Of a stretch of 64,000 nucleotides of DNA, positions 498-62,034 are shown piece by piece (position 1 is the stretch's first letter; each line of letters starts with the position of its first letter). Made by a program: the position numbers and the translations under genes. The notes beneath the pieces are model-generated. The model did no database searches, had not been told where the DNA came from, and was given only the letters and a program-made list of their open reading frames with translations. Origin of the DNA: Eledone cirrhosa (Eukaryota); contig OZ024747.1 of NCBI GenBank assembly GCA_964016885.1, forward strand, positions 33,976,001-34,040,000, given 5' to 3'.

Positions 498-530
<33 letters not shown>

Positions 531-787
531 GGAAAAAAATGAAACGAAATTTCATTTTCCACTCTTAGTACGGCTGTTACTTAAATATAAGTATGTATAC
601 TTACATACATTTAGGTATACAGACGTACAGTATTATATATATATACATACATGCACACATATATATGTACGTATGGATTCACCGAACATTTATTATAATG
701 CTCGGTGTGTTTGTAAACAAACATCCCGTATTAAGCCGTAGTGTCTAGCAACCATCGTTGCTCGTTTTTTTAACACTGACAAAGGAA

Positions 788-828
788 CGCGGTACTAGTT
801 TCAAGCTTATTAGCTCTCGTCAGCAACG
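788..828 (-). ncRNA. Minimal type I hammerhead ribozyme (family A)
   Basis: Reverse complement: cgttg CTGACGA GAGCT-aata-AGCTT GAAA CTAG TA ccgcg; palindromic stem III ACTAGT. Confidence 0.8.
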
Positions 829-1266
829 TATACCTTCCTGCCAGATGATTGTACTTCTGAAAGTATATACTTTACTTATGCATATTAACGGCTGAGCAGC
901 CTAATTTGCATATCGAGTGGGTTAATCGGCCGGGTGCACCGAAAACGATAAATGAAAAAGAATGAAATGAAATGAAATTTCTCACTCTTAGTATGGCTGA
1001 TACTTAAAAATGAATATGTATACGTACATACATATATGTATACAGACGTACAGTATAATGTATATATGTACATACATGCACACATATATATATATATATA
1101 TGTACGTATGGGTTTTCCGTACATTTCGTTTCATTTTTTCCGTTTACCGTTATCGGTGCGCCCGGCCGACTATCTCACTCGATATGCAAATCAGGCTGCT
1201 CAACCGTTAATATGCATAAGTAAAGTATATACTTTTAAACATTAAATCTTATGGCAGGAAGGTATA

Positions 1267-1300
1267 CGGTGCTGACGATAAGCTTGAAACTAGTTCATCG
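1267..1300 (+). ncRNA. Minimal hammerhead ribozyme with collapsed stem II (family A)
   Basis: cggtg CTGACGA taagctt GAAA CTAG TT catcg; stem I CGGTG/CATCG. Confidence 0.65.
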
Positions 1301-1577
1301 TTCGTTTGTCAGTGTTGAACAAAAGGGCAACGATGGTTGCTAAACAATGTACGGCTTCATTCGGGCTGTTTGTTTACAAACAAACCGAATATTATAATAA
1401 ATGTTCGGTAAACCGATACGTACATATATATACGTGTGCATGTATGTATATATCTACATACTACTGTACGTCTGTATACATATATGTATGTACGTATACA
1501 TACTTATATTTAGTTTTATGTATATATATTATATATATATATATATGCAAGTTGAAGGAAGACGTAGTAGAAGAAGA

Positions 1578-14960: not shown

Positions 14961-15056
14961 TGAAAAAATGCAACTATTCTGGTTGGAATCTCCTGGATAG
15001 GAGAAATGAAATCTCGTTTCATTTTTTACGTTTATATATATATATATATATGAACG

Positions 15057-15096
<40 letters not shown>

Positions 15097-15100
<4 letters not shown>

Positions 15101-15592
15101 GGAAAAAATGAAACGAAATTTCATTTCTCACTCTTAGTACGGCTGCTACTTAAATATAAGTATGTATACGTACATACATATATGTATATAGACGTACAGT
15201 AGTATGTATATATTTATATACATACATGCACACATATATATATGTACGTATGGCCTCACCGAACATTTATTATAATGCTCGGTGTGTTTGTAAACAAACA
15301 TCCCGAATTCAGACGTTCAATTATCTGGCAGGAAGGTATACGTTGCTGACGATAGCTAATAAGCTTGAAACTAGTACAGCGTTCCTTTGTCAGTGTTGAA
15401 CAAATTTTCAACGATGGTTGCTAGACACTGTACGGCTTAATTCGGGATGTTTGTTTACAAACACACCTAACATTATAATAAATGTTCGGTGAATCTATAC
15501 GTACATATATATATATGTGTGCATGTATGTATATATATATACATACTACTGTACGTTTGTATACATATATGTATGAACGTATACATACTTAT
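15097..15592. mobile_element. Family A fold-back copy 2
   Basis: Same outer ends as 527-1512 (aaacggaaaaaatgaaacgaaat; atacatacttatat) but a different internal inversion point (~15309). Confidence 0.8.
15341..15381 (+). ncRNA. Minimal type I hammerhead ribozyme (family A)
   Basis: cgttg CTGACGA tAGCT-aata-AGCTt GAAA CTAG TA cagcg; predicted GUA cleavage after 15376. Confidence 0.8.
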
Positions 15593-15599
15593 ATATATA

Positions 15600-16076
15600 T
15601 ATATAAAGTTGTATTCCTGTCTGCTTGTTTGTTTGTTCACGAACTTCTATGGTTTTGGAGATAGAATCCCATAACCATATATATTGTGAAATTACTTGCC
15701 CAGGGTACTTATCAAAGGGTTCCCCGGGGGCACAAACCCCCACTGAAAACCGCCGCTGAAATTGTTTTCCCTTCGATTTATATGAAATTTAAACCATAGG
15801 TAAATGACAAGATGTGATGCCTATTCACAAAAGTTTTGAATTGATATTTTGAAAAAAATTATTTACAAGAAACAAAATAAGAATAAGATTTAATAATGTA
15901 ATTTTGATTTGATATATTACAAAAATGTTTTCGAATTTTTCATCCATTACATTTTATATTGAGTAATATTGAAATGCAGAGTTTTTCTCCATAATTATAT
16001 CACTGATTTAAAATCAATCATCATTCTCTTACAAAAAAATGTGTGAAACGCAGCAAGGCGCGGGTAATTCAGCTAG
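15600..16076 (+). mobile_element. Non-autonomous Helitron
   Basis: 5' tatataaa followed by (tgtt)n; 3' gcaaggcgcgggtaattcagCTAG|t, a typical Helitron terminus. Confidence 0.7.
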
Positions 16077-16399
16077 TATATATATATGTGTGTGTTTGTG
16101 TAGAATGCCATTGTAAATCTGGAAGTGGTCACTGTTAAAAAAGGCACTCAATATGTTAGTAGAGTATAGGCATATTCATTTTATTATAGAAATGATCTCT
16201 ACCAGAATAGTACTTTTTCCTTCATAAGAAATGATCAGTCCTGATGATTTCTTACAAATGAAACAGCTCTAGTCCTATGATAAAATGTATGTGTGTGTGG
16301 GTGCGTGTGTTTGTATAAAAAAATATCGGTAGGTGTGAAAAAGGAAAAATAAAACATTTTTTTTTTTTGTACATGCATCCATTCATTCATTTGCTAACA

Positions 16400-26599: not shown

Positions 26600-27845
26600 T
26601 ATGTAACATAGTTTTGTAGCTTGCTTGAAGAATTGTTGAAGTGGAAAGACAAGACAAATTTAAATAATTTTGAAGCCAAAACAATTCATTAGAAGGAAAT
26701 TAAATTGCTGAGATAACAAAAGAATCTTACCTTAGCAAATTTAATGATCCCAAATATTTTCGGGCTTAAAAACCCATTATCAAGGGAGTATTCCTGAGAG
26801 ACTTAAAGAAAAGTCTACTAGAGTTGACTTGCAAGTTAAATGAAATGAAGACGTTAACATTTCGAACGTGCGCGTTGCGAAATGTATGATATATGTATGG
26901 GTGTCCGTGGATGTAAGGTTATGTAGTGAAAGGTGTGTGCGAATATGTATATAATAAAACGGGAAAATTATGTGTGTGATATATGTATGTGTGTGTCAGT
27001 CTAAGTGTGTTTGACTAGTGAAGACAGATTTCATTTGAAAGAAAGAATGAAACTGGCCGTTGGGATGTTGGAATCAAAGCTTTTAAATTAGCCATTCTGG
27101 TGCACTTCTTTCCATTTGATTATTGATCCTAGGTTTTAATAGCTTGATTAAGAGGGCCTCCTTAATTCTCAGTCTACCTATACTTTGTTCGGTAGCGAAG
27201 ATTGTGGTGGTAATGTCCCGGTTTCCAAACTTGAGGATGTGTTTCCGGAAGGAAGAGGAGTTGGGGTTAACATACTCTTTAATACGAAGATGTAACGGAC
27301 GAATAGTGCTGCCTATGTAAAATATATTGAATTTGTTACATTCTAGCCTGTATACTACGTAGGAAATACGCAACAATTAGTGTTGCGGATAAAGCAATTG
27401 GCTAGGGTGCATCCGTTATCCTCGTTGGGGGGGGGGGGGGGGGGGGCGTTGAAGAGAGGCATCGTCGCAGGGAAGGTCCAGAGTGAGCTAGTTTGATATT
27501 GAGACCATCTCTTCTGATGGCTTTGCGTATTGTGTTAGTAGTTTCCTCGCTGCGACGTGGGATCTAGAAGAAACAACTGTTGTTTAGTTGGTCCGGTCTC
27601 TGGAAATTATAACGGCTTTTCATTTGATTTAACTTAAATCTGCTCTCCAAAAATGCAAGTCAACTCCGATCGATTTTCAAAAAACGTCTCTCATAGGGTT
27701 ACTCCCTTGATAATGGGTTTTGAAACTCGAACATATTTGGGATCATGAAATTTGCTAAGGTAAGATTCCCTTGTTATCTTAGCGATTTAATTTTCTTCTG
27801 ATGCATTGTTTGAGCTTCAATATTAGTTAAATTCGTGTTTCATAT
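26600..27845 (-). mobile_element. 5'-truncated PLE (GIY-YIG 3' part) with inverted pLTR copy at the 5' end
   Basis: ORF 27083-27376 VVYRLEC..YIGST.R.LHLRIKE..EALLIK..PRIN; 26650-26850 inverted at 27615-27840. Confidence 0.85.
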
Positions 27846-30660: not shown

Positions 30661-30945
30661 ATCAGACACCCGGATGTAACACATGTGCAAACTAAGCACA
30701 CTGCACACATAAAAACAAGATGGCGTAGGACAGATCAAAGGAGAGGCACAGAAATAAAGAAAAGAATCCCCAGTCACTGAAGAGTTCACATAATGTGTGA
30801 CGAAAGAACTTTGACAATATATAAACAATCATCTGGAAATTTATAAATTCCTAAATTTATAAATTTATTATAATAATTTGAAGTGAAAGCCATTGGTGCG
30901 TGTGTTTTTATTGGCATCATGACCCTCCCAAAGTATAACAATATA
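30660..30945 (+). mobile_element. pLTR-like segment related to the 49085-49925 PLE
   Basis: Shares atggcgtag and a hammerhead with GAAAGAAC with 49830-49920. Confidence 0.5.
30773..30815 (+). ncRNA. Type I hammerhead ribozyme
   Basis: GTCA CTGAAGA GTtCACA-taa-TGTGtgAC GAAA GAAC TT TGAC; perfect stem I GTCA/TGAC. Confidence 0.75.
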
Positions 30946-30949
30946 TAGC

Positions 30950-32940
30950 AACTTCCTTTATATCCTGTTAAAACCATTCCTAAAACACATTAAAAGCTAC
31001 ATAAGGGACGAACTTGATATGCTCAACCACCTCCCCTAAAACACTTAATAATGAAATACCTACTAGAGTCTTTTGATGTAGTCAACCTATATTTCAATAT
31101 CCCACACAACCTAGGAATAGAGGAAATCCAATTCTGGTTATAAAATTACCCCCAATGAACTCCCACACCGCATCATAAAAGAATTCGTAATAGAAGGGCT
31201 CAAATTTATCTTGGAGAACAACTACTTCGAATTCGATACCAAACTCTACAGACAGAAATCCGGGAATGCCATGGGCATGAAAACGCCCCCCCCCTCTTAC
31301 GCCAACCTTGCTATGGGAACTTGGAAATCACCCTCTACCGAAAAGTACTGGATAAATAGGGAAACCCCTACTACCTCCACATAGAAAAAAAACTGGAAGA
31401 GATATCTGGATGATTGCTTCATCCTCTGGAATGAAAGTATGGAAAGACTTATTAAATTTAAAACACTTCTAAACAGACTCAACACAAACTTTCGATTTAC
31501 AATGGAATACAGCCATGAACAACTTCCTTTCCTCGACATCCTTATCAAGAAAACCAACAACAAAATAGAAACTGACATATATTATAAACCCACAGACTCC
31601 AAACAGTATCTTCCATTCAACTCATGCCACCCTAGACATACCAAAATGAACATTCCTTACAACCTAGCAAAAAGAATCTTCACAATAGTATCTGATAAAT
31701 ACACGTGCTACATACGACTAGAAGAATTAAAGAACACACTCATTAGCAGAAATTACCCACCATCTCTAATCAACAATGGATTCCAACGTGCCCTAAAACT
31801 CAGAATCCAGGAACTTAGACATTTCAATACAAGGAATGATTCGAAACTGAAAACTCTACCATACATCTCCACACACAACCGCCTTAACAATAAGGCATTC
31901 GACACTATCCTCCAGAACATACCTTTACTAAAAAGAGACCTAAGAATGGATCAAATCCTCCAACGCAAAATATCATGAAGAGCAAAAGACAACCCAAATC
32001 AATAAAAAACTTGCTTACACCGGCCAAATCCAGCCGACCCTCACAAGGAACCTTAGAGTAAAAACATGCGGAACGCCCAACTGTGGTATATGTATCAATC
32101 TAATAGAGGGATCGGAGTTCCACTTCAAACAAGGACAACACTGTACAGTTAAACACAACTTCACATGTGCATCAGACAACCTGATCTATGTGTTCACTTG
32201 CTCAGGTTGTCGAGAGCACTACATAGGGCAGACCAAAAATAGCCTCTGACAAGGTATGACTGTCCATAGATCCCAAATTAAAATATGGGAATACAGAAAG
32301 ATAGCACTAAGTGAACACATCGTGACCTGCGCATCTAGTAAACATCCCAATTTTAGAATTTGTCCCATCTACAAATTTAAAGACAACGCTTCCTACATCC
32401 AGCGCATTAGCAAGGAATCACAATTTATCTCTAAATACGAACCCCTTCTAAATGCTTCTACTTCGGACTAAACCAAAGCTGGCACACTTTAAAATCAACA
32501 CCCTAGACAAATTAATCCTTTAGCAATGTATCCTTCTCCAAGATTCCAGCAACTTCTGACAACTATATAATGCAGACCATCCAACCTCATAGAAACACAA
32601 AAATGATCTAGTCCTGGAGGACTTCCACGAAGATAATCGGATAAAAGGAAGCATTCAGGTGTCAAACTAAATGCTTTACATTCCCCTGAATTTGGAAGTT
32701 TCTGCTGAAGATATAATGGGTATTCCAGTGGCTCTGAACCCATTTTGTGGCAAACGTTTTTCCATTCACCCTAAATCTGAAATTTCTGCTAGGGATGGAA
32801 TTAGTATTTCAGGCACTCGTTTACGTGTGTTGTATTGAAGCGAAAAAGTATGTGTATACTCTGGGAATGTATTCTACATTATCTATTGAGTACGCTGAGA
32901 TACAACCGGGCCTGGCATTGATAAATATGCTGGATCCGTC
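30950..32940 (+). mobile_element. PLE, Neptune-like, decayed
   Basis: SFDVVNLYFNIPH; GNAMG; WKRYLDDCF; LPFLDILI; YKPTDSKQYL; Cys linker CGTPNCGIC; LIYVFTCSGC..YIGQT; ORF end ~32471. Confidence 0.88.
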
Positions 32941-44181: not shown

Positions 44182-46784
<2,603 letters not shown>

Positions 46785-59493: not shown

Positions 59494-59869
59494 AATTGGA
59501 AATAGCACGAACAGTATATTTAAAGGATTTGTTTTTCTTTTTTAATTCTTTGATTCGTCAAAGTGACATTATTGAAAAGATGCGAGGAACAATCTTTTTG
59601 TTTTGAAAAAGTAGTTTTATAATGTTTATAAATTATAAAATATAACCGGTTTCGATGTATCAGTGTAATCTATTTTATGAAATGTTGAAAAAAAAAAAAA
59701 CAATTAAAAAGGATTAACAAATTAAAGATTTAAAATTAAGTGTTGAAGCAAATTTTTTCAGTTTCTTGTTGAGAAGAAGACTGGATTTAAAACAATGGGG
59801 AACCTCCTATCATTACTACAAAAATACCGCAATAGCCTGACCACAAAATAATTTGAATACATAAGCCAT

Positions 59870-61520
59870 TTAAAATGTGATCCAAGTACTGTTTACGGTT
59901 TACCGAAGATACACAATTGTAAACTCATAAAAGTTGCCCGTGACACTTTGACTAAGAAATACATACAATTAACACCACCAGAGGACTTAAATCTCAGACC
60001 AATTATAGCTGGCCCAGCATGTGAAGCACTCAGATTTAGCAAATTCCTGGACATCCTATTAAATCCTTTTCTAAAACATATACAGAGTTACATACGGGAT
60101 GATATTTATATGCTGACAGACCAACCAAAAACTGTAAGTGAAGACACAGTTCTTGTCTCCTTTGACGTAGTAACCCTCTACAATAACATACCCCACAACT
60201 ATGGAATAACGGAAAACCAGTACTGGCTAGAAAGACACCAATCTAAAATACCCACACGCACAAAGAAAAACTTCATAATTGACGGACTCCGATTTATCTC
60301 ACAGAGAAATTATTTTACTTTCAATGCTTCAACATACCGGCAAATGACAGGCAATTGACACAGTGGTAGTCACCACATACGCCAACAATACATCTAAAAA
60401 ATAATTGGAAGAGATAACTAGACGATTGCTTTATATTATGGTCGGAAAACATGAATACACTCACTATGTTCAAAAGTATGATGAACAACATTAACAATAA
60501 CATACAATTCACAATGAAATCCAACTCCAATGAATTAGCCTTCTTGGATATCCTTATTTTAAAAACAGATGGGAAAATGGAAACTGACATCTTTTATAAA
60601 CCCAATTTCCTAAATATAAGCAATGAAATCTTCTCACGTTGTCCACACGTTTGGAAACACCTCTTGCCTAACTCCAAACAACCTGCTCTTCACATCAAGT
60701 CACCCTAAATATACCAAAGTTAACATTCCTTTTAACGTAGATAAACGTATATGCACCACAGTATCAGACCCAACTAAACTGGAACAAATACTAAATAAAC
60801 TAAAAACACACTTACCTTGAGAGCCTTCCCACTTGACATAATTAATAACGGAATAGACAGAGCAAAACACGCACAGTTTCATCAATATAACAATCCAAGT
60901 CACAGAACCACGAACAATACCTTACAGGCTTCATGCCCTGAAACACAGAAATGTTCGAGCTCTTACACAAAAACCTGCCCATCCTATCTAATGATAAAAA
61001 AATGAAAAAGTCCTTGAAACACACAATATCATTAAAACTAAAAGGCAACCCAAATCACTAAAACACATTCGCACTGTAACAAATATACACAAACCAATTC
61101 CCAATCCTACAGTAATAAAATGCGGAAGAACAAACTGTGACACATGCCTATACTTAATTGAATGGAAAAATTCACATTTAAAAATGGCCAAACTTTACAT
61201 TGAAAAATACTTCATTTGCAACTCAGAGAACATAATCTACGTAATCACATCCGGTGGATGTGGACATAACTACATAAGACAGACAGGTATACCATTGCAA
61301 AACAGAATCCATCGCCAACAAATCCGAGACGAAAAAACAAGAAAAATTCCCTTAAGTAGCCACATTGCAGATTGAACAGCAATGACCCTTACCCACTTTT
61401 AAATCTTCCCCATTTATAAGTGCTCAGATGCTTTCACAGAACAACAAAGAATAACTAAAGAGAAACTATTTCTTAACAGATTTAAACCAAAAATGCCCCC
61501 CATGAACTTATTCATAAGGA
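59870..61520 (+). mobile_element. PLE, Neptune-like, decayed
   Basis: YGLPKIH; LRPIIAGP; SFDVVTLYNNIPH; WKR*LDDCF; LAFLDILI; CGRTNCDTC; IIYVITSGGCGHNYIRQT; related to 30950-32471. Confidence 0.88.
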
Positions 61521-61825: not shown

Positions 61826-61956
61826 GTTACACAATAGTTAGTTCACCATACCGAGAACAGTTGTTTCACCTTAGCGGATGCTCAGCTAATTACGAGCTGA
61901 GGATCCGCTAAGGTGAAACAACTGTTCTCGGTATGGTGAACTAACTATCGTGTAAC
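61826..61956. repeat. Fold-back (~60-bp arms) around a hammerhead
   Basis: agttagttcaccataccgagaacagttgtttcaccttagcggat mirrored; degenerate single arm at ~58795-58850. Confidence 0.8.
61893..61930 (+). ncRNA. Minimal type I hammerhead ribozyme
   Basis: CGAG CTGAGGA tCC-gctaa-GGt GAAA CAACTG TT CTCG. Confidence 0.7.
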
Positions 61957-62034
61957 GACTTCTATATATATATACATATATGTATATATGAAAAATGTGA
62001 AAATATTGCGTGCTGCGTGGTTGTAAATGGGTTA

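Follow-up and report, generated by a model that had tools for sequence, protein, structure and literature searches.

Near the start of a stretch of Eledone cirrhosa DNA, copies of a 423-bp repeat lie in two arms that face opposite ways. This arrangement raises three questions: what kind of element the repeat is, how its arms were inserted, and which template they were copied from. The stretch, here called the window, comprises 64,000 nucleotides (assembly GCA_964016885.1, contig OZ024747.1, positions 33,976,001 to 34,040,000, forward strand), and positions are counted from its first letter.

The two-armed insertions of the window

The minus arm (527-1126) and the plus arm (1123-1512) of the first insertion are arranged head-to-head (Table 1). 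The 423-bp period described in an earlier note on this DNA is correct, as position 525 aligns with 948. The same note had counted 1.4 units in the minus arm. The length of the arm agrees with this count, but the arm is not one homogeneous copy: between its inner part (950-1126) and the corresponding bases of 527-949 the divergence is 14.7%. This inner part is also 10.9% away from the consensus of its nearest neighbours and 10.8% from the plus arm. The outer part (527-949) is of the CAGCG type and only about 4% (3.7-4.1%) from its nearest-neighbour consensus. The plus arm belongs to the CATCG type, at a distance of 9-11% from both parts of the minus arm. Judged by these distances, the 1.4-unit arm is a chimera of an older piece and a younger unit. 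The switch between the two is located between profile positions 286 and 304, approximately at E2, the distal of the two fixed ends described below. The young unit may have been set in register on the older piece via a template switch, re-insertion or gene conversion. Five other in-register chimeras were found among nine candidate arms (L161, L187, L205, L213 and L218), three further arms being ambiguous. E2 is not supported as the common switch point of all such chimeras, their switches lying at differing places.

Within a pair, the two arms are mostly more similar to one another than to arms at other loci, and the pair at 527-1512 is an exception. As the note had stated, the plus arm does cross the endpoint of the minus arm: its first bases are the reverse complement of 527-550, and from there it continues in register into the unit. 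It was also confirmed that the insertions at 527 and 15097 have both outer ends in common and invert at different points (1123-1126 and 15308-15309). Overall, the copy at 527-1512 is judged to be a poor specimen, as it is old, chimeric and equipped with two damaged hammerheads. Upstream of it, a minus-strand frame at 1-300 of the window resembles the C-terminal portion of a LINE protein, putatively of the RTE type.

Table 1. Features of the two insertions of the 423-bp family and of a separate fragment in the window
Feature	Positions	Strand	Remarks
(TA)n target, left flank of first insertion	499..526	.	
Young full 423-bp unit, outer part of minus arm	527..949	-	3' end is the distal fixed end E2 (...TTTTCCGTTT)
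Tail of ~55 nt as in Penelope-like elements (PLEs), with hairpin	527..583	-	from E1 (proximal) to E2 (distal)
Type I hammerhead of the young unit	787..829	-	U.C mismatch in stem I; predicted cut after 793
Older 0.4-unit piece	950..1126	-	same register as the young unit; makes the arm chimeric
Inversion junction	1123..1126	.	ATTT common to both arms
Plus arm, CATCG subfamily	1123..1512	+	through E2 and the cleavage site, ending at E1
Decayed hammerhead	1266..1301	+	7-nt deletion in stem II; GUU triplet
TA-rich target, right flank of first insertion	1513..1546	.	
Second insertion, minus arm	15097..15309	-	ending at E2
Second insertion, plus arm	15308..15591	+	ending at E1
Intact type I hammerhead	15340..15382	+	predicted cut after 15376
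Separate 35-nt tail fragment of the 423-bp family	15001..15035	+	ending at E2; same (TA)n as the second insertion

The hammerhead motif and its covariation

The stems of the hammerheads were identified by hand and with a pattern. The intact motif of the second insertion consists of a 6-bp stem I (ACGUUG/CAGCGU), the CUGACGA segment, a 4-bp stem II (AGCU/AGCU), GAAA and a palindromic ACUAGU stem III, whose halves are predicted to pair intermolecularly with -6.8 kcal/mol. The cleavage site proposed in the earlier note could be located in this motif. Rfam at gathering thresholds gave no hammerhead match in the whole window. An Rfam E-value scan of 15090-15600 returned sub-threshold matches only, mostly to TA-rich hairpins, and no hammerhead family.

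It had been claimed that three hammerheads of the window keep stem I paired with different bases. This holds for CGTTG/CAGCG (15341) and CGGTG/CATCG (1267), but the third one, on the minus strand, reads CGTTG/CCGCG and contains the mismatch listed in Table 1. The reduction of stem II to AAGCTT in the 1267 copy is found at 1280 as described. Such a shortened stem II occurs in just eight scattered copies genome-wide, which fits a recurring deletion between short repeats, and the AAGCTT stem is decay rather than a design variant. In the same copy, the triplet reads GUU in place of GUA.

The core and the GUA (GTA) triplet are present in 206 of 224 hammerhead copies. Five of the six stem I pairs are essentially invariant. 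The remaining pair is found as U.G (111 copies), G.U (70), A-U (32) or in another state (11). When placed on a tree of 115 arms, from which seven with other states were left out, this pair underwent about seven changes, two of them on the 3' side. The covariation of stem I noted earlier is hence real but confined to a single pair at the level of subfamilies: pairing is retained, with few events behind it.

Other hammerheads occur in the window as well. Each arm of a 330-bp palindrome at 2254-2583 contains a type I hammerhead (CTGATGAGGAC...TTGAAATATATATA); the palindrome represents a second two-armed family. Further hammerhead families are found at 16233-16285 (CTGATGA TTTCTTACAAAT GAAA) and at 61840-61960 (CTGAGGA TCCGCTAAGGT GAAA). 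The latter has an inverted partner and is located directly downstream of a PLE ORF fragment.

The family across the genome

A 15-mer from the hammerhead core has 30,621 exact matches in the 3.0-Gb genome, compared to 2 for the reversed control, and the motif is therefore not a product of chance. The copy number is at least 30,621. The monomer measures 420-538 bp (34 monomers), and the subfamilies are 3-17.5% apart and branch ladder-like on the tree. With a GC content of 36.6% and a longest stop-free stretch of 70 aa, the unit is non-coding. Folded as a circle, it is more stable than 60 shuffles (z -6.1). The octamer ATGCAAAT precedes the hammerhead in 184 of 214 copies and a TATA-like box is also located upstream, from which a promoter might be inferred.

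Tandem units with consecutive hammerheads were counted through a dimer pattern, yielding 1,641 exact matches. At some sites the unit has grown into satellite-like tracts of 20-47 kb with higher-order repeats (contig C1 near 51.78, 53.36 and 97.0 Mb, including L338). A short family related to the 423-bp one, likewise ending in (TA)n and with a comparable hairpin in its tail (AAACGAAACGAAATTTAATTTCGTTTCG), was seen at L071:4450-4655 and L122:2310-2612. The unit shows neither LTR nor MITE features: its hammerhead is of type I and not of type III, and its outer ends lie about 55 nt apart and are not matching inverted repeats.

Two fixed ends, one for each arm

To map the arm ends, a profile was applied to both window copies and to two sets of loci, 53 taken in order of position and 28 chosen as best matches. 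Two sites, E1 (50) and E2 (62), account for 112 of the 136 arm 3' ends and are spaced about 55 nt apart. Random end positions, which the earlier note had raised as evidence against its reading, are thus not what was found. In this profile set, all 24 fully classed pairs combine one E1 with one E2 (one duplicated locus is counted twice). The same combination was found in 7 of the 9 classed pairs of 24 dimer loci, where two further pairs are unclassed and L321 (E2/E2) and L350 (E1/E1) form the exceptions, and in 9 of 9 classed pairs of the youngest clade (one more being unclassed). Taken together, one E1 and one E2 are present in 40 of 42 classed pairs. A sample anchored on E2, which partly overlaps the profile set, comprised 70 loci, or 68 after two duplicates had been dropped. 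Here an inverted partner accompanies 38 of the 68 arms and ends at E1 in 31 cases, at E2 in none, with 7 unclassed.

The sequence around the outer ends is similarly constrained. TATATA is found within 20 nt of 102 of the 112 classed ends, target duplications being unreadable inside (TA)n, and exact E2 ends followed by (TA) number 3,290 versus 0 in the control. The inner ends are different: 105 arm 5' ends are distributed uniformly around the unit (KS p=0.83). Where the arms meet, 21 of 38 junctions overlap by at least 1 nt, 3 are blunt and 14 contain inserts. Several loci (L112, L125, L337, L347, L154, L170, L202 and L217) are fold-backs in which both arms begin at the same palindromic position of the unit.

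Fold-back at the level of DNA, or a satellite repeat (MITE-like or formed by replication fold-back) with a chance hammerhead-like motif, would account for the four of 38 junctions that are fold-backs at palindromes, and the unit is indeed hairpin-rich. However, the outer ends are two different sites, one per arm, instead of terminal inverted repeats, and this E1+E2 asymmetry contradicts it. The inner ends are random, the orientation is strongly biased (40 head-to-head pairs against one tail-to-tail pair in the profile set), and the full hammerhead core is conserved. Such an origin is consequently considered most improbable.

The fixed priming sites in independent insertions that the earlier note had postulated are borne out by this mapping, and they correspond to the known tail of PLEs, which is delimited by two internal starts of reverse transcription (PMC11167929). 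Two 3' ends about 55 nt apart, one of each per pair, and (TA)n flanks form the published signature of PLEs, and this signature is also present in coding PLEs of the same genome. By its footprint, the unit is very probably a non-LTR retrozyme mobilised by PLEs.

Coding PLEs and the search for a partner

ORFs combining RT and GIY-YIG domains are present in the genome and reach 1,096 aa. Five coding PLE families have (TA)n flanks and two ends whose spacing, counted by eye, is 38-66 nt, and inverted partners occur at several of their loci. A protein search with one PLE retrieved its own family only, the ends of which show the two-end pattern on inspection.

The question then arises whether the 423-bp unit is simply the pLTR of such an element, left behind by 5'-truncated copies of a coding PLE outside the sample. 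Most PLE insertions are 5'-truncated down to the terminal repeat, as described in 10.64898/2026.07.22.740005, and of the 10,597 GIY-YIG candidates in the genome 90 were read (out of 150 listed). In these 90 loci and in the window, no coding PLE with a terminal repeat related to the unit was found. The PF01541 loci comprise six PLE families and two others, none with a related repeat beside the ORF. Only three matches to the unit lie near PLE ORFs, and these are nested copies, situated after (TA)n or on the other strand. Moreover, the arms continue upstream into the previous unit, over up to 21 units, and not into a shared 3' UTR or ORF, and the stop-free stretches of the unit are short, as given above. 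The possibility that the unit belongs to a coding element as LTR or pLTR, which the earlier note had named as the outcome contrary to its reading, thus finds no match in this sample, yet the footprint remains PLE-like. We consider this origin very unlikely, and mobilisation of a non-coding retrozyme in trans is preferred.

Some further PLE sequences were observed during the search. Coding PLE-like fragments of unsampled families are present in the window at 27110-27581, 30866-32453, 59768-61495 and 45674-46648 (tblastn, 38-69% identity), the last being an RT-like open frame. At L061-L080 and L273-L302 there are young families of coding PLEs whose ORFs are 844-1,096 aa long, and the L071 family shows 94-96% identity over 131 scored copies. 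Several young coding PLEs carry altered hammerhead cores (CAGAAGA, TTGATAA and TTGACGA).

Circle, multimer or cleaved monomer as template

Within the E2-anchored sample, 44 of 68 arms extend past the cleavage site; 31 are longer than one unit and 5 longer than two. Among about 30,000 copies, 38 have a blunt 5' end that coincides with the cut site, compared to 22 at a control site. Positions 9-14 contain 4 of 105 5' ends versus 1.5 expected, leaving room for a minor share of cleaved monomers. The cleaved linear monomer was rejected as main template, as there is no pile-up of 5' ends at the cut site. With 5' ends indifferent to this site, cleaved linear monomers would be a minor template at most. 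Instead, the data support uncleaved multimers or circles as templates of the family. The circular or multimeric template claimed in the earlier note is hence supported for the family, through the arms that cross the cut site or exceed one unit and through the uniform 5' ends, but the 1.4-unit window arm on which it had been based is weak evidence. Being a chimera, this arm is no proof of a multimeric template; the plus arm and the family do support one.

The most informative arrays belong to the youngest clade, where 995 of 2,552 motif matches have a neighbour one unit further on and 30 of the 31 loci looked at yielded units. Two-armed arrays of near-invariant units are found at L333, L334, L367, L369 and L371/2, although assembly polishing may homogenise the units within one array. 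L371/2 contains 21+8 units with one singleton change, and has 8-9 TA pairs versus 7 in most loci.

Multi-unit arms do not need a circle, since arrays also grow at the DNA level, as at L139 and L337 and in the satellite-like tracts. A dimer circle as source of ABAB arrays was rejected for L139 and is unsupported for L337; duplication after insertion fits better. In the corresponding alternative, PLEs drive two-ended insertion from linear read-through transcripts of tandem loci. The hammerhead would then be largely a passenger, and the growth of the arrays would be due to template switching, unequal crossover and in-register re-insertion. In favour of this alternative, uncleaved RNA is the main insertion substrate in vitro (PMC11167929), the DNA-level duplications at L139 and L337 and the in-register chimeras of the window and of the five other loci are of the expected kind, and arms of more than two units are scarce in the E2-anchored sample. 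At L333, however, two private changes are present in every unit of both arms. A genome-wide search for one of them returned 8 units of L333 and, at other loci, 6 copies that are all single; no multi-unit source was found in the assembly. The richness of the youngest clade in long two-armed arrays of near-identical units also argues against linear transcripts, as do the 5' ends, which do not pile up at any position such as a transcription start, and the fact that subfamilies differing by up to 17.5% have kept the core of the hammerhead and the pairing of its stem I. Linear read-through is for these reasons regarded as rather unlikely.

Traces of RNA editing were considered as well. An excess of A-to-G changes in the first set (15 vs 5, p=0.025) did not recur: 24 new loci gave 2 vs 1, and the overall count was 8 vs 4. 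The youngest clade gave 7 vs 2 (p=0.18), and A-to-G accounts for 7 of 22 fixed versus 16 of 152 single changes (p=0.013), in four loci only. ADAR scars were rejected as proof of a single RNA template, the signal having failed replication. At L368 and L370, A-to-G clusters resembling RNA editing are common to neighbouring units.

On balance, the circle is slightly favoured as a main template. In a more specific reading, two PLE RTs share a single small RNA circle made by the hammerhead, each beginning at its own site and copying many laps from its side of the DNA break; this would generate two-armed arrays that carry the private changes of that circle. The arrays leave this reading evenly poised between true and false. 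If true, it would provide genomic evidence for a copying step that has been proposed since 2014.

Proposed mechanism

Tandem transcripts would first be cut by dimeric hammerheads and then ligated into circles. A PLE dimer would cut both strands within (TA)n, after which each DNA end may prime at one of the two internal sites, E1 or E2. Both cDNAs would extend past the hammerhead and may go several times round the unit. Finally, the cDNA ends would be joined via short overlaps or at palindromes. Altogether, the family, with its 423-bp unit and its copies numbering about 30,000, is probably a non-LTR retrozyme whose insertion was likely carried out in trans by a PLE RT and GIY-YIG endonuclease, from both sides of a (TA)n cut. 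The template was likely uncleaved multimeric or circular RNA, and for the long young arrays a monomer circle is the most probable one.

Both the type of element and its individual footprints were already known or had been proposed earlier. The contribution of the family is a data set, very large and still young, in which a retrozyme is linked to the two-site priming of PLEs. With it, the long-proposed step from circle to tandem DNA can be tested using a single RNA, a single enzyme family and a (TA)n target. The informative loci are L333, L334 and L371/2, rather than the window copy.

Comparison with known systems

A literature search, whose scope did not extend to subscription journals, Repbase and the supplements of the 2026 preprint, returned no paper on this 423-bp family or on the mapping of two-armed retrozyme insertions. 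The comparisons below refer to the accessible parts of the cited sources.

The family resembles the metazoan non-LTR retrozymes (PMC7229834; 10.64898/2026.07.22.740005) most closely. Both have a non-coding tandem unit of a few hundred bases with a GC content below 45%, a type I hammerhead with a short palindromic stem III, copies ranging from monomers to long multimers, and PLEs in the same genome. A circular template and mobilisation by PLEs have been proposed for them in these sources. In contrast, two-armed insertions and two fixed ends are unmapped there ('inverted' is absent from the accessible text of PMC7229834). Their molluscan example is a mussel, and no related pLTR was found for the Eledone family in the loci read.

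PLE insertions offer the second parallel. They are characterised by 5' truncation, partial tandems, an adjacent inverted copy and a tail of 30-40 bp at one end (PMC8557442). A PLE protein, predicted to be a dimer, cuts and extends both strands of AT-rich DNA (PMC11167929). The 423-bp family shares the truncation, the partial tandems, the inverted copy, the one-sided tail, the microsatellite or AT-rich target, the two starts of reverse transcription and the hammerhead within the repeat. Its tail of about 55 nt is longer than in PMC8557442 and falls within the range of the coding PLEs of this genome. Unlike PLE insertions, it has no ORF, the entire element is the repeat, and both arms may be multi-unit.

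Non-autonomous PLEs of Chlamys such as MRC1 (PMC8557442) are likewise non-coding PLE derivatives that form pLTRs and multicopy head-to-tail insertions. However, these resemble an autonomous family at their 3' end, and their clade is described as devoid of canonical hammerheads, whereas the 423-bp unit has a hammerhead and showed no similarity to a partner in the loci read.

The minimal PLE hammerheads of PMC4209133 also have an extra base after A9 and a small palindromic stem III predicted to require a dimer. There, a G10.1-C11.1 pair is named in stem II, opposite-strand motif pairs 100-700 bp apart are noted, and circles are proposed as templates for more-than-unit copying. The Eledone motif differs from these hammerheads in its 6-bp stem I and in its 4-bp stem II, which is closed by U.U instead of G-C.
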